DNA from: a virus
Reading direction: 5' to 3' (one strand)
IMG/VR virus record: IMGVR_UViG_3300015607_002611
Location: 9,143-73,142 of that record
Length of the DNA: 64,000 bases
Shown: one piece after another, positions 6,301 to 25,853 of the stretch
How positions within the stretch are numbered: position 1 is the first letter of the stretch
How the letters are laid out: every line of letters begins with the position of its first letter
The notes under the pieces: model-generated
Seen by the model: the letters and a program-made list of their open reading frames with translations, nothing else
Told to the model about the DNA's origin: nothing
The model's database searches: none
Made by a program: the position numbers and the translations under genes

Positions 6301-6301
6301 T

Positions 6302-7057: not shown

Positions 7058-7091
7058 TTAATCAATATATACTACAAATAACATTTGTAAT

Positions 7092-7325
7092 ATGAAACTT
7101 AAAGGTTTTAAGCAGTTTATAGCTGAAAAACAAACAGACCCTGATTTAGTCGATAAGATGAAAGAATATTCAGACGGTCAAGGTGATACTTGCCCAAGAT
7201 GTGGTAAATCACAAGGTGAATGTGTATGTCAAGACAGAGACTATGGTAGTACTGTTAATTTACATAGATTAGGAAAAGGAAAAGTAACAAAACAAGAAAG
7301 TAATTTTAAAAACGAAAACGAGTAA
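7092..7325 (+). CDS. Small zinc-ribbon protein
   Basis: 'CPRCGKSQGECVC'. Confidence 0.35.
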   Translation: MKLKGFKQFIAEKQTDPDLVDKMKEYSDGQGDTCPRCGKSQGECVCQDRDYGSTVNLHRLGKGKVTKQESNFKNENE

Positions 7326-7327
7326 AA

Positions 7328-7645: not shown

Positions 7646-7646
7646 G

Positions 7647-8525: not shown

Positions 8526-8536
8526 AATAAATAGAA

Positions 8537-9466: not shown

Positions 9467-9942
9467 TGAGTACTAATTCAAATCAACCAACAAGTTCATG
9501 TTATGGTATATCAGCATGTAATACACTTAGTGTTTTTATTGAGTGTTTAGCACAAATATACCAAGGTACAGATGCATCTATTGAAATGCTATTGTCTGAT
9601 GAAGAAGGTCAGCCAATTGATATTAATCAAATATTAGAAATGTACATAAGTTTATACGGTGACAAGTACAGATATCTTGAATACGTATATCCTGATACGA
9701 CTGGTTATTTACCAATAAATATTATACAGACGGTAGAAGACAATGAAGTAGTCGACCAAGGTATAATATCAATCGATATACCTGCATCAGAAACTGTTAA
9801 GTTTATGACAGGTGGTTTATTTGCAGAAATTAAAATTAAAATGATTGATACAAATTATCCAGGTGGATTTAGAACTAAAGTTATAGCTTGTCTTAACATT
9901 GGTACAATTAAATTATCAAATACAAAAGATATTCAATTATAA
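9466..9942 (+). CDS. Hypothetical protein
   Basis: ATGA-coupled ORF with no recognisable motif. Confidence 0.3.
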   Translation: MSTNSNQPTSSCYGISACNTLSVFIECLAQIYQGTDASIEMLLSDEEGQPIDINQILEMYISLYGDKYRYLEYVYPDTTGYLPINIIQTVEDNEVVDQGIISIDIPASETVKFMTGGLFAEIKIKMIDTNYPGGFRTKVIACLNIGTIKLSNTKDIQL

Positions 9943-9944
9943 AT

Positions 9945-10301
9945 ATGAGCGCAGCAAACGATTTTTTAGGAGAATTAAACAAAGTATTAATAGACCATCA
10001 GAATAAATTATATAAGTTTCATGAAAGATATTTTAATGATTATCATGAACTTTTAAATAATATCAATAAAAGGTCAACAGCTAAGAAGTTAGTTGAAATT
10101 AAAGACGGTGAAGATTATGATAAAACTGTATTCTTTGCTATACATTGTATTAAGACAAATGATGTTGAATGTGAAATAGAAACTGAATTCGGTCCTATGG
10201 TTTATCCACCATTCTCATTTGTACAAGGTGCAATTTATCCTATAAATGTACTTAGAATTAAAAATTCAGGAGGCGGAAGATTTATAGGATTATCTTCTTA
10301 A
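9945..10301 (+). CDS. Hypothetical protein
   Basis: ORF only. Confidence 0.3.
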   Translation: MSAANDFLGELNKVLIDHQNKLYKFHERYFNDYHELLNNINKRSTAKKLVEIKDGEDYDKTVFFAIHCIKTNDVECEIETEFGPMVYPPFSFVQGAIYPINVLRIKNSGGGRFIGLSS

Positions 10302-10364
10302 AAAATGAAACAAATATAAATACAACGTTATATAACATGAACGTTTAATTAAATTAATAATAAC

Positions 10365-10553
10365 ATGAACAACGAGTTAACTCAAGAACAAGCATTGTCA
10401 GTTTTAATACAAGGTGTTAGAATTGCACAAGGAAAAGGAGCATATTCAATTGAAGATGCAGAAATTATCGCAAAAGCAATTAAAGTCTTTGTTAAACAAC
10501 CTGAAGGTGAAGCACAAGCTACTGCAGAAGTAGCACCTACACAAGAAGGTTAA
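10365..10553 (+). CDS. Small hypothetical protein
   Basis: ORF followed by an intrinsic terminator. Confidence 0.3.
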   Translation: MNNELTQEQALSVLIQGVRIAQGKGAYSIEDAEIIAKAIKVFVKQPEGEAQATAEVAPTQEG

Positions 10554-10577
10554 TATTGACAAAAGCTCAATTTAAAA

Positions 10578-10601
10578 GGTGACTATACGTCACCTTTTTT
10601 T
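10578..10601 (+). terminator. Rho-independent terminator
   Basis: GGTGAC-tatac-GTCACC hairpin followed by a T7 run. Confidence 0.7.
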
Positions 10602-10690
10602 AGGTTTATATGTCAAATTTTCTTAACAAAAGTATTGGCATACTTTTGAAGCATAGTATACTATATTAACAAATAAAAATAAATAAAGCT

Positions 10691-11089
10691 ATGTTTAAAA
10701 TTTACACAGACGAAAAATTACAATCAACAATTAATGAACTTTTCAGAGATGTATTTTCTGAAACTTTTAAAAGTCCAATCTTTAACTCAGATGTTCGCTA
10801 TGAAGTTATAGAAAAGACAGATTCATATTTAATAGAAATGCTTTTACCTGGTTACAAAAAGGAAAACATTAAAATTGATTTAAATGATTCAGTGTTAAAA
10901 GTATCTTATGAGTCTAGTGAAGAAGATAAGTATAGTAAATACATCAAAGCTTTTTCTAAGTCCTTTAGAATAAGTGCAGACCTTAGCCAAGAAGACATCA
11001 CAGCTAAGATGGAAGATGGAGTTCTTAAAATTTCAGTTCCTAAATTAAAGGAAGAAGTTAAAGAATCCAGAACAATAGAAATACAATAA
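10691..11089 (+). CDS. Small heat-shock protein (Hsp20/alpha-crystallin family)
   Basis: 132 aa with an alpha-crystallin domain pattern and C-terminal 'GVLKISVPK'. Isolated between two terminators. Confidence 0.7.
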   Translation: MFKIYTDEKLQSTINELFRDVFSETFKSPIFNSDVRYEVIEKTDSYLIEMLLPGYKKENIKIDLNDSVLKVSYESSEEDKYSKYIKAFSKSFRISADLSQEDITAKMEDGVLKISVPKLKEEVKESRTIEIQ

Positions 11090-11109
11090 AAATTATTTCT
11101 TCTTTTAAA

Positions 11110-11132
11110 GGCAGTAAATTACTGCCTTTTTT
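11110..11132 (+). terminator. Rho-independent terminator
   Basis: GGCAGT-aaatt-ACTGCC followed by a T6 run. Confidence 0.7.
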
Positions 11133-11136
11133 ATGT

Positions 11137-11149
11137 GATATATAAAAAT
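11137..11149 (+). promoter_or_regulatory. Candidate 'GATATATAAAAAT' promoter-like motif immediately upstream of ATG 11150
   Basis: The same motif class occurs upstream of the homing-endonuclease genes. It resembles T4 late TATAAATA. Confidence 0.3.
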
Positions 11150-11728
11150 ATGAATTCATTAGAAAAGTTTTGTGAAAATAAAAGAATAGCAATTGTAGGT
11201 AATTCATCTAAAATATTAAGCCATAATTATGGTGATATTATAGATGCACATGATATAGTTGTAAGAATTAATCATGCTCCTAAATATATCTCTAAATACC
11301 CAAAGAATGTAGGGACTAAAACTACTATAATGTCTTATGGTCTAAGTAGATTAGATATTGCTAGAGATATTTCCAAAATTTGTAATCCTCAATATAATTT
11401 ATTTTTAATAAGATGTAATGGTGAAATAAAAGATTATTCCCAATATTCCTTATTTAAAAATCCTTTTCATGGAAGCATTGAAGAATATAAAAAACTTAAA
11501 TCTAAATTTGATGTATTTAAACCTTCGACAGGTTCAGTTACTATAAATTATTTTATTAACAATATTAATTTTAGTAAACTTAATTTATTTGGATTTGATT
11601 TCTTTACTAGTTCTTCACCTAATAGAAAAAATGAATTCCACTCGTATATTTATAGAGACCATAGCGCAGTATTAGAACAAAAGTATGTTCAGAGTGTTTT
11701 AAATGAAAATGTAGTTATATTTTACTGA
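11150..11728 (+). CDS. Sialyltransferase-like glycosyltransferase (GT29 L- and S-motifs)
   Basis: L-motif 'IAIVGNSSKILSHNYGDIIDAHDIVVRINHAP' and S-motif 'KPSTGSVTINYFINNINFSKLNLFGFDFF'. The track start at 11135 is a GTG, so the ATG at 11150 is preferred. Confidence 0.65.
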   Translation: MNSLEKFCENKRIAIVGNSSKILSHNYGDIIDAHDIVVRINHAPKYISKYPKNVGTKTTIMSYGLSRLDIARDISKICNPQYNLFLIRCNGEIKDYSQYSLFKNPFHGSIEEYKKLKSKFDVFKPSTGSVTINYFINNINFSKLNLFGFDFFTSSSPNRKNEFHSYIYRDHSAVLEQKYVQSVLNENVVIFY

Positions 11729-11777
11729 AACAATTTGCCAATGATAGATATAAAAACAATAAAGTGTTTAAATTATA

Positions 11778-13307
11778 ATGTCACAAAAGAAACGAATAAT
11801 AAAATATTTAAAACCTGATATAGTCAAAAGTGTCGCCAACATTAATAAGAATATGTCTAGACCAGCCGTTCCTAAAAAGACAGTATCTATACCTACAAAT
11901 TATACAGAAATTCCGTTACCTAATTTAATCAATAATTTTACGAATAAGCCTAAAAATAATAGAGTTTTTATTATAGGTGGAGGTTCTTCATTAAGTGGAT
12001 TTGATTTTTCAATATTAAAAGACGAAGATATTATTGCAGTTAATAAATCAATTGAATACGTTAATTATGCAAAATATTTTGTTACAATGGATTATACATT
12101 TTTTACAAATCACCACAAATTAACAAATGCTGACTTTAGTATAATTAATAATAAGGCAGAACATACATATTTCATTATAAATACTGAACATAGTTATATT
12201 AAAAATATAAATGGTGTATATACTGATACTAGATTTAATTTAAAATATACAGCGCTTGAAAAATTTGAAGGTGTAATTAGAAGTCCTAAGACATACGACT
12301 CAAGTAGAGGATTTGGAAGTGATATACATACATTTACACACGGTAATAATAGTGGTTATTGTGCTTTACAATTAGCAATTGCTTTAGGTTATGAAGAAAT
12401 ATATTTATTAGGATATGACCTAAATATAAGTTCAAGTAAAACACATTTCCATAATGGCTATAAACAAGATGTTTCTAGATTTTCTAGGAACTTAATTGAA
12501 TATAGAACTATATTTTCTAAATCATTACAATTATATAAAGGCCCTAGTAAAATATACAGTTGCTCAAACAATAGTTATCTTAATACTTTTATAAAATATG
12601 TAGATATTAAAACTGTATTAAATGTACCAGTACAACGGCAAATAATTAGACCTGAAAATATAATTGTACCTGATAGTATTCCACCTATTAAAACAAGTGA
12701 AATGAATGGAGATTTAAGAGACCTTATTGTTATTGGTTATTATACAATTAATACTCCTTATGAAGCTGAAGCTCAGGGATTAATTAAATCTTGTAGTAAA
12801 TTAAATTTAAGACAAGATATTATAGGTGTACCAACGTTTGGTAATTGGCAATCAAATACTAGATTTAAAGCTAAATTTATGCTAGAGATGTTAGAAAAAT
12901 ATCCTGGTTCTAAATTAGTATATGTAGATGTTGATGCTGTAATCCATTCAAGATTAAATTTATTTAAAGATTATGATTATGATATTTCTGTTAGGTATCA
13001 AGATTTTAGATGGCGTAAAAATGAGTGTTTAAGCGGTACTATATTTATAAAATCAAATGAGAAAACCATTAAATTATGTAAACGTTGGATGGAAATAAAT
13101 GATTCTGAGGGTTCTAATGCTAAAACATTAGAACAATGGAATTTAGATAAGGCAATACAAGAGGGTATTAAAGACTATGGTTTAACATTTAAAAATTTAC
13201 CACCTGAATATACATTCATTTTTGATTCAATGAAGGCAATATATCCAAATGTTAAACCTGTAATTGAACATTTCCAAGCTAGTAGAAGATTTAGAAATAA
13301 AGTATAA
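11778..13307 (+). CDS. Two-domain glycosyltransferase: N-terminal CstII/GT42-like (DUF115-like) sialyltransferase-fold domain plus C-terminal DxD GT-A domain
   Basis: N-terminal 'NRVFIIGGGSSLSGFDFSILKDEDIIAVNKSIEY' resembles CstII 'VIIAGNGPSLKEIDYS...DVFRCNQFY'. C-terminal 'LVYVDVDAV' is a DxD motif. Confidence 0.5.
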   Translation: MSQKKRIIKYLKPDIVKSVANINKNMSRPAVPKKTVSIPTNYTEIPLPNLINNFTNKPKNNRVFIIGGGSSLSGFDFSILKDEDIIAVNKSIEYVNYAKYFVTMDYTFFTNHHKLTNADFSIINNKAEHTYFIINTEHSYIKNINGVYTDTRFNLKYTALEKFEGVIRSPKTYDSSRGFGSDIHTFTHGNNSGYCALQLAIALGYEEIYLLGYDLNISSSKTHFHNGYKQDVSRFSRNLIEYRTIFSKSLQLYKGPSKIYSCSNNSYLNTFIKYVDIKTVLNVPVQRQIIRPENIIVPDSIPPIKTSEMNGDLRDLIVIGYYTINTPYEAEAQGLIKSCSKLNLRQDIIGVPTFGNWQSNTRFKAKFMLEMLEKYPGSKLVYVDVDAVIHSRLNLFKDYDYDISVRYQDFRWRKNECLSGTIFIKSNEKTIKLCKRWMEINDSEGSNAKTLEQWNLDKAIQEGIKDYGLTFKNLPPEYTFIFDSMKAIYPNVKPVIEHFQASRRFRNKV

Positions 13308-13308
13308 T

Positions 13309-14064
13309 ATGGATAAGAAAGTTAGTATATTAATACCGGCATATAATCGCCAAGACTTTATTAAGACTGCTCTTAAAAGTTGTACTAGTCAAACATATAA
13401 TAATTTTGAGGTTATTGTATATGATGATGGTTCTACTGATGAAACTTTAAATGAAATTAAAGATTTTATAAAAAATTGTTCTATTAAAAATAAAAATAAG
13501 ATAAGAATAATTGAAGGTGTTACTAATAAAGGAATTGGTGTTGCACGGAATATTTTATTAAATTCCTTCGATAGTGAATATGCATGTTGGCTTGATAGTG
13601 ATGATATGATGACGTCGAATAGATTACAAGATTGTATTAATTACATGGATGTTAATCCTGAAACTGATATCATATACAGTAATATACAATGGTTTACTGG
13701 AAATAATCCATATAAATACGGTACAATTATATCACCTAATATAACAAGATATTCAAAGGATAAATTTGAATCTATTTCAAATAATTCAAGTTGTGCAAGC
13801 GGTTTTTTTAAATCAGATTTTAAAAAATATAAGTTTTTAGAAGGTTTAAATTTAGGCGGTGAAGATTCTCTTTGGTTATGGGATATAATTAAAGATGATA
13901 GGGTAATAAGACATATTGATAGAGTTTTATATTATTATAGAAGCCATGGTAATAGAATAGGTATAATTAAAAGAAAAGAAGAATTTAAAGAATTAAAAGA
14001 TAAAGAAGGTTTAATTGTATATAATTATCTAAATAATATAAAGAAAAATGAATCCGATAAATAA
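13309..14064 (+). CDS. Glycosyltransferase family 2
   Basis: 'VSILIPAYNRQDFIKTALKSCTSQTYNNFEVIVYDDGSTDET' and 'WLDSDDMM' (DxD). The ATG at 13309 right after the upstream stop is preferred over the track start at 13264. Confidence 0.8.
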   Translation: MDKKVSILIPAYNRQDFIKTALKSCTSQTYNNFEVIVYDDGSTDETLNEIKDFIKNCSIKNKNKIRIIEGVTNKGIGVARNILLNSFDSEYACWLDSDDMMTSNRLQDCINYMDVNPETDIIYSNIQWFTGNNPYKYGTIISPNITRYSKDKFESISNNSSCASGFFKSDFKKYKFLEGLNLGGEDSLWLWDIIKDDRVIRHIDRVLYYYRSHGNRIGIIKRKEEFKELKDKEGLIVYNYLNNIKKNESDK

Positions 14065-14692
14065 TTACTTTAATAAAATATACTGTGTTAATTTAGATAG
14101 ACGTCAAGAAAGATGGAAAGAAGCTTCAGATGAATTTAAAAAATTCAGTTTAGATGTAGAAAGATTTTCAGCTGTTGATGGTAGTAAATTAGATTTATCT
14201 AATATTAAAATGCAAGTTCTTAAATCTGATTCTTTACCGGGCGCTGTTGGTTGTAGTATGAGCCATAGAAATATAATCATAGACGCTAAAGAAAAAGGCT
14301 ATGAGAAAATTTTAATATTAGAAGATGATGTAGTATTTACTGACAATTTAATCGAAAGATTTGAAAAAGAAATTAATTCTTTACCTGAAGATTGGGATTT
14401 ATTTTATTTAAGTGCTAACAATCTTAAACCAGAAGCTTTAACTAAAATAAATGAAAATATATGGAGGACAAGATTTTCATATACTACACATTGTTATGCA
14501 GTTCATTCTAGAGTATATGATGTAATAATTAAAGGATTGGAAAATCTTGATGTTCCGGTTGACCAATTTTATAAAAACGTATTACAACAAGAATATAATT
14601 GCTATGTTATTAGACCTCATTTATCATGGCAACGCGAGGGTTATAGTGATATAATGAAAGGTAATAGATTTTACAAAAATATAAAAGAGTAA
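14048..14692 (+). CDS. Glycosyltransferase family 25 (LOS/LPS beta-1,4-galactosyltransferase-like)
   Basis: 'KIYCVNLDRRQERW...FSAVDGSKL...GAVGCSMSHRNII' matches the GT25 N-terminal signature. Confidence 0.65.
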   Translation: MNPINNYFNKIYCVNLDRRQERWKEASDEFKKFSLDVERFSAVDGSKLDLSNIKMQVLKSDSLPGAVGCSMSHRNIIIDAKEKGYEKILILEDDVVFTDNLIERFEKEINSLPEDWDLFYLSANNLKPEALTKINENIWRTRFSYTTHCYAVHSRVYDVIIKGLENLDVPVDQFYKNVLQQEYNCYVIRPHLSWQREGYSDIMKGNRFYKNIKE

Positions 14693-15276
14693 TGCCATAT
14701 TCAGATAAACATAAATTAATATTTATACATATTCCTAAAAATGCAGGTACTGCTATTACTAATGCACTTGAAATGAATGATATTGGACATCATTCATGGA
14801 AATATTATAAAAATAAATATCCTGAAAAATGGAATACATATACAAAAATTGCAGTTATTAGAAACCCATGGGATCGTGTAGTATCTAATTATGCATATGC
14901 TAGAATGGAAGAAAGTCACTGGCATTCAGTTTCAGGAAAAACTAGATATTCAAAACACCCAGACTTAGAATTATTAAAAGATAAATCGTTTGAAGAGTGT
15001 ATATCTATTTTAAAAAATAATCCAAGTTCTTTAAAACATCAGGGCTGGTCTTTACAAAAAGATTATATTACAGATGACAATCATATAGTAATTGATATTG
15101 TAATATTACAAGAAGATATTAATACTGTAATAAATAGATTAACAAACGTTAATGTGAGTAAAATAAATACAAGTAAAAGAGATGATTATAAAACTTACTA
15201 TAATCAAGATTTAATTGAAACAGTAGGTGAAATATACAAGGAAGATATAAAATTATTTAATTTTAAATATGAGTGA
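14692..15276 (+). CDS. PAPS-dependent sulfotransferase (carbohydrate sulfotransferase-like)
   Basis: 5'-PSB motif 'IHIPKNAGTAI' (HIPKTGGT-like) and 3'-PB-like 'RNPWDRVVSNYAY'. Confidence 0.6.
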   Translation: MPYSDKHKLIFIHIPKNAGTAITNALEMNDIGHHSWKYYKNKYPEKWNTYTKIAVIRNPWDRVVSNYAYARMEESHWHSVSGKTRYSKHPDLELLKDKSFEECISILKNNPSSLKHQGWSLQKDYITDDNHIVIDIVILQEDINTVINRLTNVNVSKINTSKRDDYKTYYNQDLIETVGEIYKEDIKLFNFKYE

Positions 15277-15817
15277 TATAAATAAAATGCTAAATACAAA
15301 TAATTGGTTTAGCTTTAAGGGATTTTATGAAAATGTAGCTAATATAAGTGAATATAAAACTTATGTTGAGTTAGGTGTATGGAAAGGACATTCAGTTAGT
15401 TATTTAGCAAAATGCCTTAAAAAAAGAAATGATACTAAAGTATATGCTGTCGATATATTTGAGAAGTGGGATAAAAATGAAAATGTAAAAGATGAAGTTA
15501 AACATATTAATGAAATCTATAATACTAATTTAAAAAATATGGGTGTTAGGGATTCAATTACTGACATTAAATCTATTTCATGGGATGCTGCATCTAAATT
15601 TGAAGATAATAGTATTGATTTTGTTTTTATTGATGCTGACCATACATATGAATCAGTGGTAAAGGACATAAATTCATGGTTGCCTAAAATTAAAAAGGGT
15701 GGAATGATATCAGGTCATGATTATTTCACTTCAGATGGTGTTAAACGAGCTGTAGTTGAATTATTAGGTAATGTTGAATCAATTAAAAAAGAAAACGTTT
15801 GGTATAAAAAAGTATAA
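15269..15817 (+). CDS. Class I SAM-dependent O-methyltransferase (TylF/MycF / CmcI-like sugar O-MTase)
   Basis: 'YVELGVWKGHSVSYL' and 'FVFIDADHTYESVVKDI...KKGGMISGHDY'. Confidence 0.6.
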   Translation: MSDINKMLNTNNWFSFKGFYENVANISEYKTYVELGVWKGHSVSYLAKCLKKRNDTKVYAVDIFEKWDKNENVKDEVKHINEIYNTNLKNMGVRDSITDIKSISWDAASKFEDNSIDFVFIDADHTYESVVKDINSWLPKIKKGGMISGHDYFTSDGVKRAVVELLGNVESIKKENVWYKKV

Positions 15818-16671
15818 TGTCTTATATTACTCCTAGAATAATAAAATTTGGTAAACCTGAAAATCATAGAAGTTCAATTGGACATGCAATGTATAATTAT
15901 ATAACAGCACTTTTGCTAGCTAAAAAATATAATTTAACATTCTTACATTCTCCATTTATAGCTGATTGTGAAAGATTTGAGAATGTATTAGGTTTAAATA
16001 AATTCTTTCCTAATTTTAAGACAATTAGAATGCCTGAATATAAGCTTCTACCTTATTGTAATTTTGGTCATCCTAATTTAGATGAAAATAAATATAATAA
16101 TAGTTTAAGGAGACTTTCAATTGAAATAAATAAGAAGACTACTAAAACTATATTCTTTACAAATAATCCAGCTGAACAGTTTCCGGGATTATTAATAAGA
16201 GAATCTGAATATCTTTCAAATATATTATCTGAAGCTTATTGGTCAGTTAATGGAAAATCAAAATTATATGATTATTCTAAAACAAACGTAGCTATCCATA
16301 TAAGAAGGGGTGATATCACTGAAAAAGAAAACACTGATAGATGGAAGGATAATAATCATTATATTAATATTATTAATAGTATAAAATCTAAAATACCTGA
16401 TGCTAGATTCTATATATTTTCTGAAGGTGAAATTGGAGATTTTAAAGAATTTAGTAAAGATGTTAATTTAATTTTAAATGGTAGTGATATTGAAGCATTT
16501 AATAATTTAGCAAGTTCTGATATATTAGTAACAGGACAGAGTACATTCTCTACAATTATTTCATATATTAATACAGGAACTATTGTTTATACACCATGTT
16601 TGAGTTTTACATTATTTGATGGTTTCAGTAAAAGGTTTATAAGATACGATAAAATAGATGAACAATTATAA
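15817..16671 (+). CDS. Fucosyltransferase-fold glycosyltransferase (GT11/GT23-like)
   Basis: 'VAIHIRRGDI' fits GT11 motif I (HVRRGDY). N-terminal 'SIGHAMYNYITALLLAKKYN' fits the GxLGNQMFxYA pattern. Confidence 0.45.
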   Translation: MSYITPRIIKFGKPENHRSSIGHAMYNYITALLLAKKYNLTFLHSPFIADCERFENVLGLNKFFPNFKTIRMPEYKLLPYCNFGHPNLDENKYNNSLRRLSIEINKKTTKTIFFTNNPAEQFPGLLIRESEYLSNILSEAYWSVNGKSKLYDYSKTNVAIHIRRGDITEKENTDRWKDNNHYINIINSIKSKIPDARFYIFSEGEIGDFKEFSKDVNLILNGSDIEAFNNLASSDILVTGQSTFSTIISYINTGTIVYTPCLSFTLFDGFSKRFIRYDKIDEQL

Positions 16672-17497
16672 AATATATTTTACTACTAATTGGAGTATAA
16701 GACATGATGTTTTCATGGATTACCTAAAAAGACAAACCCCTGACTTTTCAGGTTCTTGGGATAATATCATAATGGTTAATAAACAAAGAGAAGCTGACTA
16801 TATTATAGTACAAGATGGTTCAGATGAAAAGATCGAAGATATGTCTAAGGTTATATTTTTTGGACGTGAACCTAAACATATTAAATATTATTGTTGGGAC
16901 GATAAATTATGTAATAAAGTATATCATCATGAAAATAATAATTGCTGGCTTCCGCAAACTTGGTGGGTTGGTTTAAATTATAATGAGTTAATTAACTTAA
17001 AATATTTAAAGAATAAAAAATTTAGTATAATTGACTCTGGTAAAATATCTAAAGATGGTCATAAGAATAGATTAAACTTCATCAAATTATTTATAAATCA
17101 ATATCCAAATGATGTAGACTTATATGGTAAAATAAATGGAAATATATTACCCGAAAGAGATAAAAGCCTTGCATTATTAAATTATAAATATACTTTATCA
17201 ATTGAAAATGGAGTAACTGATAATTACTTCTCTGAAAAATTTGTAGACCCGTTATTATGTTTAACATTACCAATATATCATGGATGTAGAAGAATAGATA
17301 AATACTTTCCTAAAGGTTCTTATTATAAAATTGATATAAATAAGTCAGGTACTATTCAAGAAATATATAATTTGATTAACAGTAATTATGCTGAAGAGAA
17401 TATAGAAAATATTAAAGAAGCTAGAGATTTAATATTAAAAAAGTACAATATTTGGCCAACAGTAAAATTAGCAATAGAAAATAATATTAAAATATAA
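16658..17497 (+). CDS. GT10-like alpha-1,3-fucosyltransferase-fold glycosyltransferase
   Basis: 'YKYTLSIENGVTDNYFSEKFVDPLLCLTLPIYHG' matches the FucT motif (FxLxFENS...YxTEKxxxxL...PVxxG). Confidence 0.5.
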   Translation: MNNYKIYFTTNWSIRHDVFMDYLKRQTPDFSGSWDNIIMVNKQREADYIIVQDGSDEKIEDMSKVIFFGREPKHIKYYCWDDKLCNKVYHHENNNCWLPQTWWVGLNYNELINLKYLKNKKFSIIDSGKISKDGHKNRLNFIKLFINQYPNDVDLYGKINGNILPERDKSLALLNYKYTLSIENGVTDNYFSEKFVDPLLCLTLPIYHGCRRIDKYFPKGSYYKIDINKSGTIQEIYNLINSNYAEENIENIKEARDLILKKYNIWPTVKLAIENNIKI

Positions 17498-17498
17498 A

Positions 17499-17909
17499 AT
17501 GGAAAAAATTTATTCTAAAGTACAACCTGATAAATTATTACATATAATAGTAAGAAAGTCTGATATGGTTCCAGGAAGAACTGATATTGTAGACCCTGAG
17601 CATTTCATACAATGTTCCATGTTAAATATGGAAAAAGGTAAAACATTTAAACCACATAAACATATTTGGAAAGAGAGAAAAAGAGATGTAATAGCACAAG
17701 AAAGTTGGGTTGTTATACAAGGAAGTGTTAAATGTATATTTTATGATATTGATGATACATTAATAGCCGAGCCTGTATTATATCCCGGTGATTCAAGTTA
17801 TACACTTGAAGGTGGTCATAATTATGAAATACAAGAAGATAATACTCTTGTGTATGAATATAAGACAGGGCCTTATGAAGGTCAAATATTTGATAAAACA
17901 TTTTTATAA
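17499..17909 (+). CDS. Cupin-fold protein, possible NDP-ketosugar isomerase/epimerase
   Basis: Cupin motif 'PHKHIWKERKRDVIAQESWVVIQG'. Context is between the GTs/MTases and Gmd. Confidence 0.35.
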   Translation: MEKIYSKVQPDKLLHIIVRKSDMVPGRTDIVDPEHFIQCSMLNMEKGKTFKPHKHIWKERKRDVIAQESWVVIQGSVKCIFYDIDDTLIAEPVLYPGDSSYTLEGGHNYEIQEDNTLVYEYKTGPYEGQIFDKTFL

Positions 17910-17910
17910 T

Positions 17911-18459
17911 ATGGAAAAAAATAAAATTAACTTAGGTTGCGGTTGGAGAAATTTTGGCAAAGAATGGCTTCATATTGATAATGGTGATTACGATCATTTA
18001 GATATTAAATGTGATGTAAAGAAATTAGATTTACCTGATAATTACGCAGATTTAATTTACGTATCACATGTTATCGCATATTTTGATAGAAATGAAATAT
18101 GTGATGTTTTAAAAGAATGGAATAGGGTTTTAAAACCAGGTGGTACTTTAAGAATAGCTACGCCAGATTTTGAAGCAATGAGTAAACTTTATGTACAAGG
18201 GAGGATAGAACTTAAACAGATGTTGGGTCCAATGTATGGTAAAATGCCAATGGATGATATTACAATTTATCATAAAACTACTTATGATTTTCATTCATTA
18301 GCTACAGTATTATTAGATAATGGATTCAGGTATGTAAAAACATATAACTGGAAACAAACTGAACATGCACAATTTGATGACCATTCACAGGCTTATATTC
18401 CTCATATGGATAAAGAGAATGGTACACTTATTAGCTTGAATGTCGAATGTATTAAATAA
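17911..18459 (+). CDS. Class I SAM-dependent methyltransferase
   Basis: 'INLGCGWRNFGKEWLHIDN' (motif I) and 'WNRVLKPGGTLRIATP'. The ATG at 17911 is preferred to the overlapping track start at 17788. Confidence 0.6.
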   Translation: MEKNKINLGCGWRNFGKEWLHIDNGDYDHLDIKCDVKKLDLPDNYADLIYVSHVIAYFDRNEICDVLKEWNRVLKPGGTLRIATPDFEAMSKLYVQGRIELKQMLGPMYGKMPMDDITIYHKTTYDFHSLATVLLDNGFRYVKTYNWKQTEHAQFDDHSQAYIPHMDKENGTLISLNVECIK

Positions 18460-18460
18460 A

Positions 18461-19078
18461 ATGACAGAAGTAAATATAAATCTACTTAAAGATTCTTTTG
18501 ATAAAAGAAAGATTGATACAATAAGATATATTGTAAACGAATATGTTTCCAAGGGAGATGGGATTATTAATAAGAAATATTTTCAAGAATTAGGTAGTTA
18601 TACAAAAAGAAATGATGATACTGTAGATATAAATCTTTCAAATTATTTTTCTAGATTATTATATGCTCCTAATTTTGCAATATTAGATTATGTTATTAAA
18701 AATATAAATCAATTAAAAGATTTAAAATTCATTGATAATGGCGCTGGATTAGGTATACTTTCTATATTCTTAAAAACATTAAATATTGATTGTTATAATT
18801 ACGATAATTTTTCACAAATTAAAGATGTTACTTTTCATGAGAATGTTTTAAATAAAATGAATATTAAAATTCATCCTGTTTCTAGTCAAATACCAAATGA
18901 CTGTGAGGTATTAGTATGCTCTGGCATTTGGATTGATAATCCAGAATTCTTAAAAAGAAATTTACAATATGTTCTTTTAGATAGAAACCATGAAGATAAG
19001 GGAATTGGTCCTGAATTAACATCAGAATTTACTTTACTTGATAAATATAATACAATTAATGTTTATGGAAGAAAATAA
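18461..19078 (+). CDS. Methyltransferase-like protein (weak)
   Basis: 'FIDNGAGLGILSIFL' resembles the SAM-binding motif I. The ATG at 18461 is preferred. Confidence 0.3.
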   Translation: MTEVNINLLKDSFDKRKIDTIRYIVNEYVSKGDGIINKKYFQELGSYTKRNDDTVDINLSNYFSRLLYAPNFAILDYVIKNINQLKDLKFIDNGAGLGILSIFLKTLNIDCYNYDNFSQIKDVTFHENVLNKMNIKIHPVSSQIPNDCEVLVCSGIWIDNPEFLKRNLQYVLLDRNHEDKGIGPELTSEFTLLDKYNTINVYGRK

Positions 19079-19718
19079 AATTAAACCAATAGATTTTAGT
19101 TCAGTAACTGAATTTGAAAATCAAGTAGCCTCATTCTTTGGTGCTAAATATGCGATTGCTGTTGATTCATGTACACATGGTATAGAATTATGTTTGAGGC
19201 ATGTTAAAGCTGATTATATGTTTTCACCTAAGCAAACATATATCTCAGTTCCATTTCTTGCTAATAAACTAGGAATAGACTTAGTATGGACTGATTATGT
19301 ATGGCAGGATTGGTATACAGTATGGGGGAAAGGTGATTCTGGATTACAAAGAGTGTTAGATAAAAGAATTATAGACGCAGCTGTACTTTGGAAAAAGGAT
19401 AGTTATTTACCAGGCACATTTATGTGTCTTAGTTTTCAATATCAAAAACATTTAAGTTTAGGTAGAGGCGGAATGATTTTATGTGATGATGAAGTTTCTG
19501 CATTAGAATTAAAAAAGATGTCATATGATGGTAGATTACCAAATATACCATGGCGTTCACAAAACATTGATATATTTGGATATCATTATTATATGACACC
19601 TGAAACAGCATCAGTGGGATTACAAAAATTACCAGAGGCTATAGCAACTAAACCAAAACAATGGGTCATGAGTGATTGGCCAGATTTAACAAAAATGAAA
19701 GTATTTAATAATGAGTAA
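19059..19718 (+). CDS. DegT/DnrJ/EryC1-type sugar aminotransferase-like, short form
   Basis: 'FENQVASFFGAKYAIAVDSCTHGIELCL' (N-terminal signature) and 'LSFQYQKHLSLGRGGMIL' (PLP-Lys motif SFhxxKxxxxGxGGxI). Only ~220 aa, against ~370 for typical members. Confidence 0.45.
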   Translation: MFMEENKIKPIDFSSVTEFENQVASFFGAKYAIAVDSCTHGIELCLRHVKADYMFSPKQTYISVPFLANKLGIDLVWTDYVWQDWYTVWGKGDSGLQRVLDKRIIDAAVLWKKDSYLPGTFMCLSFQYQKHLSLGRGGMILCDDEVSALELKKMSYDGRLPNIPWRSQNIDIFGYHYYMTPETASVGLQKLPEAIATKPKQWVMSDWPDLTKMKVFNNE

Positions 19719-20700
19719 GAAAGCATTTATCACAGGAATTAATGGACAGGATGGTAGTTATTTAGCTGAATATCTATTATCATTGGGTTACGATGTACAT
19801 GGAATGATGAGACGTAATTCAGTACCTGAAAATCAAACAATGAGAATTGAATCAATTGAAAAAAATATTCAAACCCATTATGGTGATTTATTAGACCAAA
19901 CTTCAATCGAAAGATTATTAACAGAAATTAAGCCAGACGAAATTTATAATCTTGCAGCTCAGTCTCATGTAAGAATTAGTTTTGATGTACCTCAATTTAC
20001 AGTACAAACTAATTCAGTAGGTGTAATTAATATGCTAGAAGCATATAAAAGAATTGTACCAGATGCTAGATTTTATCAAGCAAGTTCATCTGAAATGTTT
20101 GGATTATCAGTAGAAGAAGATAATTTCCAAAGAGAAAGTACTATAATGAATCCTGTATCTCCTTATGGATGTAGTAAAGTATTTGGGTATAACGTAGTAA
20201 GACATTATAGAAGAGCTTATAATATACATGCTAGTAATGGTATTTTATTTAATCATGAAAGTCCTCGTAGAGGTTCTAACTTTGTAACTAATAAAGTAGT
20301 TAAGGGTGCGTGTATGATTAAGTTGGGTTTAGATAATAAGTTAGAATTAGGTAACATGGATTCTTATAGGGATTGGGGTCACTCTAAAGATTATGTTAAA
20401 GGGATGCATATGATTTTAAATCATGACGTTGCTGATGATTTTATTCTTTCGACAATGGAAACACATTCTGTTAGGGAAATGTGTGAAGTTGTATTTAGTT
20501 ATTTGGGTTTAAATTATCAAGATTATGTAGTTCAAAATCCTAAATATTTAAGACCTGAAGAATTACCTTATCTTAAAGGTGATTCTACTAAAGCAAGGAC
20601 AATTTTAGGTTGGAAACCAGAATATACATTTGAAGCTTTAATGCATGAAATGTGTGACCATTGGTTAGATGTATTACAAGGTAAAAAATCTTATAGATAA
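19711..20700 (+). CDS. gmd: GDP-mannose 4,6-dehydratase
   Basis: Near-full-length similarity to Gmd: 'KKAFITGINGQDGSYLAEYLL', 'YNLAAQSHV', 'FYQASSSEMFG', 'NGILFNHESPRRG', 'LGNMDSYRDWGHSKDYV'. Confidence 0.92.
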   Translation: MSKKAFITGINGQDGSYLAEYLLSLGYDVHGMMRRNSVPENQTMRIESIEKNIQTHYGDLLDQTSIERLLTEIKPDEIYNLAAQSHVRISFDVPQFTVQTNSVGVINMLEAYKRIVPDARFYQASSSEMFGLSVEEDNFQRESTIMNPVSPYGCSKVFGYNVVRHYRRAYNIHASNGILFNHESPRRGSNFVTNKVVKGACMIKLGLDNKLELGNMDSYRDWGHSKDYVKGMHMILNHDVADDFILSTMETHSVREMCEVVFSYLGLNYQDYVVQNPKYLRPEELPYLKGDSTKARTILGWKPEYTFEALMHEMCDHWLDVLQGKKSYR

Positions 20701-20963
20701 TGAAATTTGAAATATGGTCAGTAGGTATAGATGAAGGCGTATATACGCCTATGTTTAAGGAATTAGAGTCAGATGACTTTTCATATATTTATGCAACATT
20801 TTTAAAATTATCAAAGAATGGTATGTATATGATTACTACTAAGACTTTATTGCCAGCAAACGAGCTTAAAAATCAAAAGTGGATTTATGAATCACCTGAC
20901 GGTGGTAAAACAATTTATAAAAGAAAACGTTTAACAAATGATAGAGAACAACATGAGGGATAG
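20700..20963 (+). CDS. Hypothetical protein
   Basis: ATGA-coupled to gmd. Confidence 0.3.
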   Translation: MKFEIWSVGIDEGVYTPMFKELESDDFSYIYATFLKLSKNGMYMITTKTLLPANELKNQKWIYESPDGGKTIYKRKRLTNDREQHEG

Positions 20964-21549
20964 AATAAAAAATCTAATACAACAAGAATTAGATGCTATC
21001 AAAAATATTCCTATAAATGATACATTTGAAGATGCAGTTGAATTAATATACAATCATGTACATTTAGGAAGAGGTAAAATAGTAGCAGCAGGCATTGGAA
21101 AAGCTGGCCATATTGCACATAATATTGCCATGACATTATCTTCGACAGGGACGAGAGCAGTATTCATTCATCCTACCGAGGCACAACATGGTGATTTAGG
21201 TATATTAGGAAGAAATGATATTTTATTACTTGCTTCTAATTCAGGTAAAACAAGAGAAGTTTTAGAATTTATACAATTAGCAAAAAACATTTTTCCAGAC
21301 ATCAAAGTTATTTCAATTACTGGAAATAAAGAAAGTGAATTAGCTAATAAATCAACTGTAAATTTATATACAGGCGGTGCTAAAGAAATAGATAAATTTC
21401 AATTAGTCCCAACTACATCAACAACACTTATGACAATTATTGGAGATATTTTAGTTGTCGAATTAATGGATAAAATTAATTTTACTAAAGAACAATACCA
21501 ATTATTACATCATTCTGGATATATTTCTGAACAGCTAAAAAACAAATAA
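20938..21549 (+). CDS. kdsD: Arabinose-5-phosphate isomerase, SIS-domain only (KdsD/KpsF-like)
   Basis: 'GKIVAAGIGKAGHIAHNIAMTLSSTGTRAVFIHPTEAQHGDLGIL...LLLASNSGKTREV' parallels KdsD 'GMGKSGHIGRKMAATFASTGT...HPGEAAHGDLGM'. Confidence 0.8.
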   Translation: MIENNMRDRIKNLIQQELDAIKNIPINDTFEDAVELIYNHVHLGRGKIVAAGIGKAGHIAHNIAMTLSSTGTRAVFIHPTEAQHGDLGILGRNDILLLASNSGKTREVLEFIQLAKNIFPDIKVISITGNKESELANKSTVNLYTGGAKEIDKFQLVPTTSTTLMTIIGDILVVELMDKINFTKEQYQLLHHSGYISEQLKNK

Positions 21550-21550: not shown

Positions 21551-22330
21551 ATGGAAAAACATTTTAAATTAATAGCAGGACCCTGTTTAATTGAAGACGA
21601 AGAAGTAGCTTTAAGAATTGCTGCAGAATGTAAATATATTGCTGATAGACTAGGAATAGAATATTACTTTAAAGGTTCTTATAAAAAAGCAAATCGAACT
21701 AAGCTTTCTAGTGTATCTTCTGGAATGACAGAAGAACGAGCTTTACAAGTTTTACATAAAATTAAAACTGTATTAGGTATACCTGTCGTTACAGATGTTC
21801 ATGAAACACATGATTGTGAAAAAGCTGCAAAATACGTAGACGTATTACAGATACCAGCATTTCTTTGTAGACAGACTGAGCTGCTTATAGCAGCAGGTAA
21901 AACTGGTAAGATAGTTAACATTAAGAAAGGTCAATTTATGGCACCAGAGTCAATGATTCATGCTCAAGAGAAAGTATATTCAACAGGTAATAAAAACGTT
22001 TGGCTTACAGAACGTGGAACTACATTTGGATATGAATATCTTGTAGTTGATATGACTTCAATGCCTAAAATGAGAAAGTTTAATGATAATGTTATAATGG
22101 ATTGTACACATTCAGTCCAAAGACCAAATCAGAACGGCCAGACAGGTGGAGACCCTGAAATGATAGAAACTATTGCTTTAAGTTCTATTGCAGCTGGCGC
22201 AACAGGATTATTCTTAGAAGTACATCCTGAACCTTGGAAATCTGGAAGTGATTCAACTAACATATTACAGATTGATAAATTAGAAGGTATTTTAGAGAAA
22301 TGTATTAAGGTTAAACAAGCCTTAAAATAA
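21551..22330 (+). CDS. kdsA: 3-deoxy-8-phosphooctulonate (Kdo-8-P) synthase
   Basis: 'GPCLIE', 'YFKGSYKKANRT', 'VVTDVHE', 'VDVLQIPAFLCRQTEL', 'VNIKKGQF', 'ERGTTFGY', 'DCTHSVQ' and 'LFLEVHPEP' are all KdsA signatures. Confidence 0.9.
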   Translation: MEKHFKLIAGPCLIEDEEVALRIAAECKYIADRLGIEYYFKGSYKKANRTKLSSVSSGMTEERALQVLHKIKTVLGIPVVTDVHETHDCEKAAKYVDVLQIPAFLCRQTELLIAAGKTGKIVNIKKGQFMAPESMIHAQEKVYSTGNKNVWLTERGTTFGYEYLVVDMTSMPKMRKFNDNVIMDCTHSVQRPNQNGQTGGDPEMIETIALSSIAAGATGLFLEVHPEPWKSGSDSTNILQIDKLEGILEKCIKVKQALK

Positions 22331-22331: not shown

Positions 22332-22868
22332 ATGGCCAAAGTTTTAGAAAACATTAAAGGTACTCATGAATATTCAATACTTGTTGAATACATGAAACAA
22401 TTACAATATGATAAGTTAGTACACTCATCATATGCACCTAAGAGATTAGAAAAATGGTTCGGTTATTCATCTAATCTCCAGTCTATTAAAGATGGTAGAC
22501 ATGAATTAAAATTCATTGAAACAATACCTTACGTTTTCAATAGAATTAAAAACGATTATTATCCAGAATCTGATTCAATTTTAATTTGTAAAGGTGAAAA
22601 ACCAGATTCTGATACTTCAATTTCAAACCATAGAGACCACGGATGCTTTTTAGCAAAAGCTGTTATGTTAAATATTGGAATTTCTACATATACTGAAACT
22701 GATTATAATGGCTTAGTTAAATTATACGAACTGAATGATGGTGATATAATTGAAATTGATACAAAGATAATTCATGCATCAAGTCAAATAAGTGACCTGA
22801 GATTAAATGCAACTTTAAGAAAAGTTAGACCTGAATTTTTACCACGAAAAACAAACAATTTATTTTAA
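22332..22868 (+). CDS. Hypothetical protein, possible Fe(II)/2-oxoglutarate dioxygenase fold
   Basis: 'HRDHG' (HxD) with downstream 'IIEIDTKIIHAS' (second His). There is no HAD DxDG motif, so it is not KdsC. Weak. Confidence 0.25.
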   Translation: MAKVLENIKGTHEYSILVEYMKQLQYDKLVHSSYAPKRLEKWFGYSSNLQSIKDGRHELKFIETIPYVFNRIKNDYYPESDSILICKGEKPDSDTSISNHRDHGCFLAKAVMLNIGISTYTETDYNGLVKLYELNDGDIIEIDTKIIHASSQISDLRLNATLRKVRPEFLPRKTNNLF

Positions 22869-24376: not shown

Positions 24377-25231
24377 ATGTACATAAGAAAGTGCCCAACT
24401 TGTCCACGTGAAACTAAATTTAAAAGTAAGAAAGCTTATAATAGAGCAATTGAATCAAACAGAAGCTGTAAACAATGTAGTATAAGAAATAATCTTTCTG
24501 GGTATAGAAATGATGTTTCAAATGGTTTAAAGCCTAATGGATTTTTAAATAAAACACATACAGAAGAATTTAAAAACAGGCTAAGAATAGAAAGAATAGG
24601 TAAAAAAGTTCATAATAGTAAATCTAAATCTAAAATTAGTAAAGCTTTATCCGGTGAAAACAATCCAATGTTTGGTAAATCTTTCTATGATATTTGGGTT
24701 GAAAAATATGGAAAAGAAGTTGCAGATAAAAAGTTAAAAAAATTTAAGTTTAAAATTAGTAAAGCAACTGAAGGTAAAAACAACCCAATGTTCGGTAAAC
24801 CTTCGCCCCAAGGAAGTGGTAACGGTTGGAAAGGTTGGTACAAAGGAACGTTCTTTAGAAGTTTACACGAGCTATCTTTCTTGATTAATTATATAGAAAG
24901 ATTTAAAATGCCATTTGAATCAGGTGAACAAGCTAAATGGGCAATTGAATATAGAAAACCTACAGGTGAAATTGGTACATATTTTTCAGACTATGTTATC
25001 AATGGGAAATATATGGTCGAAATAAAACCTGAAAAACTTAAAAGTAGCCCAACTAATAAAGCTAAACGCAAAGCAGCTGAAAAGTTTTGTAAAGCTAAAG
25101 GTTTAAAATATAAAATGATATCGCCGATATTATTAACTGAAACAAATATCCTATTTTTACATAAAAAGAATATAATTAAATTTACAGACATATATGAAAA
25201 ACGATTCAGAAAGCAATATACATTTTCATAA
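24377..25231 (+). CDS. Homing-endonuclease-like protein: N-terminal zinc finger, NUMOD3-type repeats, C-terminal PD-(D/E)XK-like motif
   Basis: 'CPTCPRE...CKQC', repeated 'ENNPMFGKS' and 'KNNPMFGKP' (NUMOD3-like), and 'FSDYVINGKYMVEIKPEK' (D...ExK). Confidence 0.45.
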   Translation: MYIRKCPTCPRETKFKSKKAYNRAIESNRSCKQCSIRNNLSGYRNDVSNGLKPNGFLNKTHTEEFKNRLRIERIGKKVHNSKSKSKISKALSGENNPMFGKSFYDIWVEKYGKEVADKKLKKFKFKISKATEGKNNPMFGKPSPQGSGNGWKGWYKGTFFRSLHELSFLINYIERFKMPFESGEQAKWAIEYRKPTGEIGTYFSDYVINGKYMVEIKPEKLKSSPTNKAKRKAAEKFCKAKGLKYKMISPILLTETNILFLHKKNIIKFTDIYEKRFRKQYTFS

Positions 25232-25853
25232 TTTAAGTGTTACCCGCGAGATGCGAGAAAAATTAAATGGTCATAAACCGTGTATAATTTGGTTCACTGG
25301 GTACAGCGGAAGTGGAAAATCCACAATAGCTAATATTTTAGATACTTATCTACATAAAGGTGGCTATCACACTTATATCTTAGACGGCGATAATATTCGC
25401 TCAGGTTTAAACAAGAATTTAGGTTTCAGTGACGATGACCGTAAAGAAAACATTCGCCGTATTAGTGAAGTAGCTAAATTATTTGCTGATTCTGGTACAA
25501 TTGTATTAACAGCATTCATTTCACCTTTTATTGAAGATAGACAAATTGCACGTGATATTCTTTCAAAAGATTTCAATTTTATTGAAGTTTATGTTGAAGC
25601 AGATTTAGAAACATGTGAGGCGCGTGACCCTAAAGGTCTTTACAAAAAAGCAAGAGCTGGTCAAATCAAAAACTTTACTGGAATTGATAGTCCTTATGAA
25701 GCTCCTATAAATCCAGAAATAACATTAAAAACTTCCCAGTATAGTCCAGACTTAAGCGCATATACAGTTCTTCATTATTTATACGATAATAATATTTTAC
25801 CTTTAGGACTAAAGCAAGATGCTGTTAATAATTCTAAAACATTAAGTCACTAA
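25194..25853 (+). CDS. cysC: Adenylyl-sulfate (APS) kinase
   Basis: 'IIWFTGYSGSGKSTIA', 'LDGDNIRSGLNKNLGFSDDDRKENIRR', 'VLTAFISP' and 'CEARDPKGLYKKARAGQIKNFTGIDSPYEAP' are near-identical in pattern to E. coli CysC. Confidence 0.93.
   Translation: MKNDSESNIHFHNLSVTREMREKLNGHKPCIIWFTGYSGSGKSTIANILDTYLHKGGYHTYILDGDNIRSGLNKNLGFSDDDRKENIRRISEVAKLFADSGTIVLTAFISPFIEDRQIARDILSKDFNFIEVYVEADLETCEARDPKGLYKKARAGQIKNFTGIDSPYEAPINPEITLKTSQYSPDLSAYTVLHYLYDNNILPLGLKQDAVNNSKTLSH

Follow-up and report, generated by a model that had tools for sequence, protein, structure and literature searches.

Which sugar is transferred by a pair of sialyltransferase-like enzymes that a virus encodes next to a pathway for cytidine monophosphate (CMP)-activated 3-deoxy-D-manno-oct-2-ulosonate (Kdo)? 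The question is raised by IMG/VR record IMGVR_UViG_3300015607_002611, of which positions 9,143 to 73,142 were analyzed (64,000 nucleotides, hereafter the window), and specifically by two adjacent open reading frames (ORFs), here named ORF A and ORF B, which are the first two genes of a glycan operon. A sequence-only reading of the window had proposed both as candidate Kdo transferases distinct from WaaA. This proposal fared unevenly: the folds of the proteins, their synteny with Kds genes and the lack of NeuB speak for it, and it is weakened by the fact that Kds genes track ORF B, by the NeuB gene of another viral locus and by the equal distance of ORF B to CstII and WaaZ. On balance, it seems somewhat probable that the pair opens a phage glycan operon endowed with its own CMP-Kdo supply and acts as Kdo transferases. 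The features on which the argument turns are the following.

11107..11129, + strand: terminator-like hairpin after an HSP20 gene, 10-bp stem with 4 GC pairs and a T tail
11150..11728, + strand: ORF A, minimal, soluble glycosyltransferase of the family 29 (GT29) fold, 192 amino acids (aa)
11778..13307, + strand: ORF B, predicted bifunctional glycosyltransferase, 509 aa, two confident domains
11910..12638, + strand: N-domain of ORF B (~residues 45-287), CstII (GT42)/WaaZ/Maf/MptE-like fold
12708..13277, + strand: C-domain of ORF B (~residues 311-500), PF03407/GT77-like GT-A domain of retaining type

Folds and motifs of the two proteins

The ORF lister opens ORF A at a GTG codon (11135..11728). 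Its true start is the ATG at 11150, as the earlier reading had it, because close homologs measure 191-195 aa (mostly 192), because gene callers give 192 aa on identical contigs and because GTG 11135 falls in the T-rich stretch that follows the hairpin at 11107-11129. The protein matches Pfam PF00777, the GT29 family, with 48.7 bits (cut-off 23, E 9e-13), a match confined to profile positions 55-103 of 272, the L-motif region. Regular expressions place the L-motif at residues 17-41 (GNSS...IDAHDIVVRIN), the S-motif at residues 125-149 (PSTG...LFGF) and an H-x4-E motif of VS type at residues 171-176; the first two had been recognized from the sequence alone, and their key residues proved to be family-invariant. 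In an alignment of 18 family members, with identity down to 26%, the invariant positions are G17, N18, D35, R39, N41, P125, G128, G148, F149, D150, H171 and E176. The best sequence match in the PDB is pig ST3Gal-I (E 1e-6, or 1e-11 with the family profile), on whose PSTGI...DLYGF segment the S-motif aligns, the L-motif aligning likewise on its L-motif. The H171...E176 stretch, weak when taken alone (7.7 bits), aligns on HDLSLE of ST6GalNAc2, which is its VS motif.

Several hallmarks are missing from ORF A. Motif III ((H/Y)-Y-(Y/F/W)-(E/D)) is not recognizable and has no conserved equivalent in the 18-sequence alignment; in a profile alignment, HYFE of ST6GalNAc2 faces a segment that varies within the phage family. 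The cysteine pair of the L-S disulfide is absent (cysteines occur at 8, 78 and 89 only, none invariant), as are a transmembrane (TM) anchor and a stem, the L-motif beginning already at residue 17 and thus leaving no N-terminal anchor.

The AlphaFold2 model of ORF A has a pLDDT of 92.8 and a pTM of 0.91. In a Foldseek search of this model against the PDB, the best 30 matches were all eukaryotic GT29 sialyltransferases (E down to 7e-9), with TMq values of 0.57-0.68 bar one ST8SiaIII chain at 0.48, and GT42 CstII came at rank 31. Taken together, the Pfam match, the L, S and VS motifs, the confident model and the all-GT29 Foldseek list establish ORF A as a genuine minimal soluble enzyme of GT29 (GT-A-variant) fold. 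Eukaryotic GT29 enzymes (ST3Gal-I, 2wnb; ST6GalNAc2, 6apl; ST8SiaIII, 5bo8; ST6Gal-I, 6qvs) have this GT-A-variant fold and the same L, S and VS motifs, and they lack a DxD motif as ORF A does, which implies a metal-independent inverting mechanism. The 192 aa of ORF A compare with ~270-300 aa for the eukaryotic catalytic domain; unlike these enzymes, ORF A is cytoplasmic and phage-encoded, and is devoid of TM segment and stem, L-S disulfide, recognizable motif III and sialic acid pathway.

A disordered linker (residues 288-310) connects the two domains of ORF B. The N-terminus of ORF B scores 23.3 bits against PF01973 (MptE-like/DUF115), below the gathering threshold of 34.6, yet 29 of 29 family members match. 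The alignment with Campylobacter CstII seen in the sequence-only reading was borne out, as residues 2-227 of CstII are covered by the family profile (hmmsearch, E 3e-4) and hhalign gives the N-domain a probability of 96.4% (E 1.2e-9). Authentic E. coli K-12 WaaZ (CAZy GT73) gives 94.3% (E 1e-7) over 222 columns, an alignment that spans WaaZ residues 16-266 of 283 at 24% identity; positions 8-242 of the 252 in the NCBIfam model TIGR04437 (WaaZ_KDO_III) are covered. Further matches of the N-domain are to CstI, Maf and PHROG 4603, labeled 'alpha-2,3-sialyltransferase'. His188, the catalytic residue of CstII, lies with its 'IGHS' segment in a gap of the alignment with the ORF B family profile, and the invariant H223 and H225 of ORF B are nearby. 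Based on these matches, the N-domain is a candidate inverting CMP-ulosonate (CMP-Kdo) transferase. CstII and CstI (GT42) and Maf (PF01973 superfamily) are nonulosonate users, whereas WaaZ (TIGR04437/PF27901), homologous to the N-domain over nearly its whole length, is tied to Kdo addition while being distinct from WaaA; ORF B differs from WaaZ, a single-domain protein, and from the nonulosonate users by its second, fused glycosyltransferase domain. Sorting the N-domain into a WaaZ-like or a CstII-like class was attempted and dropped, the hhalign scores being equivalent.

The C-domain matches PF03407 (Nucleotid_trans) with 35 bits against a threshold of 22, has a GT-A fold and carries an invariant DxD (D384, D386). 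It shares 10-17% identity with chlorovirus PBCV-1 A64R and with retaining GT-A enzymes of GT77, GT8 and GT6, from which it is set apart by its fusion behind a CMP-ulosonate-type domain. This domain, the PF01973/WaaZ-type similarity of ORF B and the KdsD-type isomerase at 20938 had not been listed before. Comparison by hhalign reveals no relationship of the ORF A family with either the ORF B family or WaaZ; hence, ORF A and ORF B are not paralogs. For both proteins, the evidence supports a fold that is employed by CMP-ulosonic-acid transferases.

A D3-family 'alpha-2,3-sialyltransferase' (phrog_4603; Pseudomonas phage D3 orf7, ~6041-6397) also resembles the N-domain of ORF B. In phage D3, orf7 adjoins a head-tail adaptor gene within the structural module, a placement suggestive of virion glycosylation, in a host without sialic acid synthesis.

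CMP-Kdo supply and conservation of the pair

Four contiguous genes near the end of the operon form the Kdo set.

20938..21549, + strand: KdsD/KpsF-type arabinose-5-phosphate isomerase, 203 aa, SIS domain only, no CBS domains
21551..22330, + strand: KdsA, Kdo-8-phosphate synthase (NF003543, 341 vs 242; TIGR01362, 334 vs 314)
22332..22868, + strand: ORF 22332, 178 aa, between KdsA and KdsB, conserved in loci L001 and L012
22868..23617, + strand: KdsB, CMP-Kdo synthetase (TIGR00466, 163.6 vs 155.2; NF003952, 236.7 vs 193)

KdsA and KdsB exceed their NCBIfam cut-offs, which upholds their earlier assignment, and the KdsB protein scores only 37 bits on the PseF model. The best models for the product of 20938 are KpsF, KdsD and GutQ, all below cut-offs (kpsF subfamily, 144.6 bits). 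ORF 22332 has no match in Pfam, NCBIfam, PHROGs or the PDB; its product might stand in for KdsC or modify Kdo. An HxD...H oxygenase motif in this ORF was a by-eye impression and found no support.

Synthases of other ulosonic acids were sought with a NeuB probe that reaches 789 bits on N. meningitidis NeuB (1xuu) and detects pseudaminic acid synthase at 1e-45. In the window, no NeuB/PseI/LegI-type synthase was matched by tblastn at E<=10, and the best six-frame phmmer hit for NeuB (E 0.17) is noise. The 10 kb past either end of the window contain no NeuB-type synthase either, so the claim that the locus lacks a sialic acid synthase holds for the window and these flanks. The only other cytidylyltransferase-like gene, at 26079, belongs to PF01467 and not to the CMP-ulosonate family PF02348. 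CMP-Kdo is the sole CMP-ulosonate encoded within ~84 kb, as had been proposed for the locus.

The ORF A-ORF B pair, often preceded by HSP20, recurs at 66-73% identity in close relatives, at 37% and 45% in a marine TARA lineage and at 35% and 38% in the 462-kb phage LR756500 (L009), where KdsA, KdsB and KdsD all lie <=10 kb from the pair. It is also present, within the range of 35-45% identity, on IMG/VR contigs with Kds genes downstream (L014, L015, L017 and L025), while a distant marine lineage (L006) has the pair and runs out in a KdsD fragment. Among IMG/VR GT29-like genes with at least 34% identity, ORF B is next in every case, with KdsD and KdsB downstream of ORF B wherever the flank reaches. 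The ORF B family exceeds 280 clusters, from which 80 loci were sampled, 24 of them close relatives. NeuB is found in none of the 80, and KdsD and/or KdsB lie within 10 kb in 18 of the 24. No NeuB-type gene occurs anywhere in the genomes of LR756500, LR756508 and DLP_6, all of which carry GT29-like genes. The conserved module, composed of an optional mini-GT29, a WaaZ/CstII-like-GT-A fusion and KdsDAB, is widespread in uncultured large aquatic phages and suggests that these phages direct the synthesis of complex acidic glycans.

Beyond this module, GT29 proteins of minimal size are numerous. A profile search of a word-indexed database returned 1,362 mini-GT29 relatives, and an exhaustive search 7,593 cluster representatives at E<=1e-3 (2,119 at E<=1e-10). 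Since these include chromosomal genes of Rhodobacterales, annotated 'glycosyltransferase family 29 protein' in Thioclava, Paracoccus and Celeribacter, the description of GT29 as eukaryotic or viral had to be abandoned. The proteins of these genera are compact (~204-207 aa), share 25-32% identity with ORF A and give full-length profile matches; unlike ORF A, they are chromosomal and usually form a GT4-GT29 pair in housekeeping surroundings that are mostly uninformative. Of 80 bacterial mini-GT29 loci, 5 have an adjoining KdsD-type gene and 1 has NeuB in its vicinity. Mini-GT29 domains are fused to GT8, GT92/GT2, GT4, pyruvyl- and methyl-transferase and MptE-like domains, and a Rosetta-stone search found no KdsB, NeuA, NeuB or KpsC among their partners; as these are other glycan-building domains, they do not reveal the donor. 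One fusion protein, P0356 (659 aa), unites an MptE-like domain (~143-212) and a mini-GT29 domain (477-653), in support of a link between these two types of domain, which are encoded by separate genes in the window.

Some relatives deserve mention in their own right. In several Rhodobacterales genomes (among loci L157, L203, L223, L225 and L062-L064), a KdsD/KpsF-type isomerase directly follows the GT4-GT29 pair, which suggests a role related to Kdo or to the core of lipopolysaccharide (LPS). The 484-kb phage LR756508 carries about four tandem GT29-like paralogs (LR756508.1 310494-341078, L011, at about 11585-16265), accompanied by two GT25 genes, three sulfotransferase genes, a GT11-like gene and a GDP-mannose 4,6-dehydratase (GMD) gene; the ~30 kb fetched contain no ORF B homolog, and KdsA and NeuB are absent genome-wide. 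In Stenotrophomonas phage DLP_6 (L010:11328-12762, AAY80_201/202), a GT29-like 'hypothetical protein' directly follows a stand-alone PF03407-type 'nucleotide-diphospho-sugar transferase', which by its position may be the counterpart of the ORF B C-domain, with no ORF B similarity at E<=1e-5. DLP_6 is a cultured T4-like phage and so offers a culturable system that carries a mini-GT29. Finally, a full pair is found on a 4,965-bp contig (L149, CAJIYZ010000007.1) binned with the marine Bacteroidetes MED-G20 metagenome-assembled genome, either as a mis-binned phage fragment or as a hint to the host group.

Donor and acceptor of the pair

The most parsimonious donor predicted for the pair is CMP-Kdo, a choice that the evidence supports in part and that gains from comparative genomics for the two genes as a unit. 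Of the two, ORF B has the firmer case: use of CMP-Kdo by its N-domain is quite probable, and use by ORF A is a tentative, near-even proposition. Upon infection, the phage KdsD, KdsA and KdsB, together with what is presumed to be a host phosphatase, would raise the pool of CMP-beta-Kdo. The N-domain of ORF B would transfer Kdo with inversion, creating an alpha-Kdo linkage on a cytoplasmic acceptor, and its C-domain, a GT-A domain with DxD, would add a hexose or pentose from a nucleoside diphosphate sugar. ORF A, presumably metal-independent and using the invariant His171 of its VS motif as general base, would add a further ulosonic acid, for which a second Kdo, or one linked differently, is the most parsimonious choice. 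Such a succession of ORF B and ORF A would parallel that of WaaA and WaaZ in the E. coli core, or the action of plant RCKT1 in rhamnogalacturonan II (RG-II). The remaining enzymes of the operon (GT2, GT25, GT10/GT11-like, GMD, DegT-like, WbuC cupin, methyltransferases and a sulfotransferase fed by APS kinase) may finish the glycan, yielding a methylated and sulfated product with fucose or 6-deoxyhexose. Its acceptor might be a host envelope glycolipid or polysaccharide, or else a phage or host protein.

A number of observations weigh against Kdo transfer by both proteins. The nearest characterized relatives of ORF A all use CMP-sialic acids. ORF B scores 29.8 bits against the WaaZ equivalog cut-off of 200, making it homologous and not an equivalog, and by sequence comparison its N-domain is about as far from CstII, a sialic acid enzyme, as from WaaZ, a Kdo enzyme; homology therefore cannot assign its donor. 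The operon contains no gene for KdsC, the Kdo-8-phosphate phosphatase. The ~84 kb inspected (the 64-kb window plus 10 kb beyond each end) belong to a probably larger genome, and the host could be a source of CMP-legionaminic, CMP-pseudaminic or CMP-sialic acid. Moreover, a GT29-like gene is present in 12 of the 24 close ORF B loci, and nine close loci combine ORF B and Kds genes without one. It is thus ORF B with which the Kdo pathway co-varies, the GT29-like gene behaving as an optional accessory, and this makes the linkage to Kds genes only indirect evidence for ORF A. Phages LR756508, with its ~4 GT29-like paralogs and no phage KdsA, and DLP_6, with a GT29-like gene and no phage Kds genes, attest to the same independence. 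Lastly, locus L044 (IMGVR_UViG_3300048033_000958, 4423-11774) associates three mini-GT29 genes with both KdsA and NeuB. Its gene order is DHDPS/NanA-like, KdsA-like, methyltransferase, two CTP_transf_3 cytidylyltransferases, two mini-GT29, NeuB, the third mini-GT29 (219 aa; PF00777, 110 bits, profile positions 57-271) and GT2. With octulosonate and nonulosonate routes side by side, it constitutes a natural system for assigning donors to mini-GT29 paralogs.

These observations feed two rival views of the donor. That ORF A, and possibly the N-domain of ORF B, is a sialyl- or nonulosonate transferase working on host-made CMP-N-acetylneuraminic acid (CMP-Neu5Ac), CMP-legionaminic or CMP-pseudaminic acid, with the phage Kdo genes serving another step or ORF B only, appears unlikely. 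It would account for the structural neighbors of ORF A, of which those characterized are all sialyltransferases, for the matches of the ORF B N-domain to the nonulosonate transferases CstII, CstI and Maf and to PHROG 4603, for the mini-GT29 genes beside NeuB in L044 and for the uncoupling of GT29-like genes from Kds genes. However, a NeuB-type gene is missing from the window, its flanks, three deposited genomes and 80 ORF B-family loci, the sole CTP_transf_3 enzyme is a clear KdsB, and a phage equipped with three steps of one CMP-ulosonate pathway, beside two transferases of CMP-ulosonate type, would need a second, non-universal donor from its host. If host nonulosonates are the donors after all, the pair would amount to ordinary phage-borne sialyltransferase-like genes. 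We regard as improbable that CMP-Kdo is used by ORF B alone and that ORF A has diverged toward another donor or role, for instance a non-CMP nucleotide sugar, as reportedly used by the plant GT29 protein GALT29A, or a modified octulosonate. The optional presence of ORF A in the module, its unrecognizable sialylmotif III, the very large size of the mini-GT29 family with its fusions to many different glycan-building domains and the conserved ORF 22332 inside the Kdo gene set, which could modify the sugar, would fit such a divergence; the invariance of the CMP-binding L and S motifs and of the catalytic VS His/Glu, and a fold match specific to GT29, argue against it. As for chance motif matches or decaying, functionless genes, only the short length of ORF A could be invoked in their favor, and this idea is effectively refuted by the Pfam E-value of 9e-13, the catalytic residues invariant throughout the family, the high-confidence fold and a synteny kept across lineages down to 35% identity. 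A chance motif or a pseudogene was rejected on the grounds of the Pfam score, the invariant residues and the model confidence.

A further alternative concerns the acceptor and is compatible with Kdo transfer. The module might glycosylate virion or host surface proteins, in a way resembling Maf flagellin glycosyltransferases or chlorovirus A64R, an option to which we accord a minor chance. The operon encodes no flippase, polymerase, initiating phosphoglycosyltransferase or exporter, which makes a lipid-linked intermediate of the host, or else a protein, the probable acceptor, and the homolog of phage D3 sits within a head-gene module. Conversely, an acceptor cannot be read from similarity of fold, the surroundings of the operon within the window contain no virion genes, and WaaZ-type, GT25, GT10 and GT11 enzymes typically act on glycans of the LPS or lipooligosaccharide (LOS) type.

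Kdo transfer by the pair would not stand alone. The plant GT29 protein RCKT1/MGP2 is required for the Kdo of RG-II, which is lacking in the knockout, and was inferred to be an inverting alpha-Kdo transferase with CMP-beta-Kdo as putative donor; it could not be expressed in E. coli, and an in vitro assay has not been achieved (PMC11288761). By description, RCKT1 and ORF A are alike as GT29 proteins in a context that makes CMP-Kdo and not sialic acid, whereas the former is a Golgi type-II membrane protein with a knockout chemotype and the latter a minimal soluble protein tied to Kdo by its gene context. A GT29-GT107 ORF of E. coli K6 was proposed for poly-Kdo (PMC13171606). The role of WaaZ is backed by genetic and overexpression evidence, for which Frirdich et al. 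(2003) is cited. Other users of CMP-Kdo outside WaaA/GT30 are KdoT (GT-B, ELM1-like), KpsC/KpsS (GT107) and WbbB (GT99), which have GT-B or derived folds without homology to ORF A or ORF B, GT99 and GT107 being retaining; KdoT, a GT-B enzyme, was reconstituted in vitro in 2025. Phage kdsA and kdsB were first noted in December 2025 in the cultured cyanophage S-SCSM2R, without a transferase, and the Kdo pathways of giant viruses (CroV/Fadolivirus) have no Kdo transferase assigned. A limited literature search found no published description of the present phage module. Kdo transferases other than WaaA are already known, as is, on genetic evidence, one of GT29 type in plants; the pair adds to these kinds, and its value lies in offering a compact, testable candidate and not a new category.

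Should CMP-Kdo be the donor of ORF A, this protein would represent a very small, soluble and disulfide-free GT29 enzyme amenable to expression in E. coli and to assay, and would become the first tractable biochemical and structural model of GT29 Kdo transfer, the reaction of RCKT1 in RG-II. Transferases could then be assigned to the phage and virus Kdo pathways lacking them (S-SCSM2R, CroV/Fadolivirus). It is conceivable, if rather doubtful, that the prokaryotic and phage mini-GT29 clade, which counts thousands of proteins, is for the most part made up of alpha-Kdo (octulosonate) transferases and not of sialyltransferases. In that case, ORF A would team up with its WaaZ/CstII-like partner to decorate host or virion surfaces with methylated and sulfated glycans that contain Kdo, and an origin of the sialyltransferase fold in bacterial Kdo chemistry would be suggested.

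The operon and its genomic setting

The window has a G+C content of ~29% and almost all its ORFs lie on the + strand. Megablast of the locus against 50,697 deposited phage records retrieved no close relative at the DNA level, and contigs with an identical ORF B reach 104 kb. As is usual for large uncultured phages, the window and its flanks encode homing endonucleases, RNA ligases, thymidylate synthase, a sigma factor and an SPFH protein, besides the Thg1-like, arginine and APS kinase genes described below. No tRNA gene was found within the 64 kb. The glycan operon extends over ~13 kb, from 11150 to ~24110, and is tightly packed, with stops and starts that overlap or abut. The hairpin at 11107-11129 marks the start of the new transcription unit, the only terminator in this layout being upstream of ORF A; a scan for sigma-70-type promoters found sites no commoner than in shuffled sequence. 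The other genes of the operon and one related gene downstream are listed below.

13309..20700, + strand: tightly packed remainder of the operon, from GT2 to GMD
14692-15276, + strand: sulfotransferase (PF03567)
19059-19718, + strand: DegT/DnrJ-like protein, ~219 aa against a 360-position profile, two separate match pieces
25194..25853, + strand: APS kinase (PF01583, 238 bits), ~10 kb downstream of the sulfotransferase

The remainder codes for GT2, GT25, the sulfotransferase, S-adenosylmethionine (SAM) methyltransferases, GT11-like and GT10-like proteins, a WbuC cupin, an ORF without assigned family, the short DegT-like protein and GMD. The activated sulfate 3'-phosphoadenosine 5'-phosphosulfate (PAPS) for glycan sulfation appears to be supplied by the phage, through APS kinase to the operon sulfotransferase, and a faint additional Sulfotransfer_3 gene lies upstream of the window (L065:6828-8090). 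The DegT/DnrJ-like protein, perhaps an aminotransferase that was truncated or rearranged, is nevertheless kept in locus L002 at 71% identity.

Outside the operon, an unusual set of auxiliary arginine genes comprises argininosuccinate synthase (ArgG) and an argininosuccinate-lyase-like (ArgH-like) Lyase_1 gene at 27950-30489 (+ strand), together with an arginine deiminase/DDAH-family gene just upstream of the window (L065:8093-9034). A cluster of RNA-repair type occupies 43546-48223 and 49117-49896 (+ strand), in which Pfam confirms a T4 Rnl2-type RNA ligase at 47192 and a Thg1-like tRNA-His guanylyltransferase at 49117; the ligase-like ORFs at 43546 and 45457 were called by eye only. The gene array is also interrupted by GIY-YIG-type homing endonuclease-like ORFs, recognized by eye at 24377-25231, 33329-34075, 36914-37633 and 52421-53125 (+ strand), the Pfam matches to GIY-YIG being confined to the flanking locus L065.

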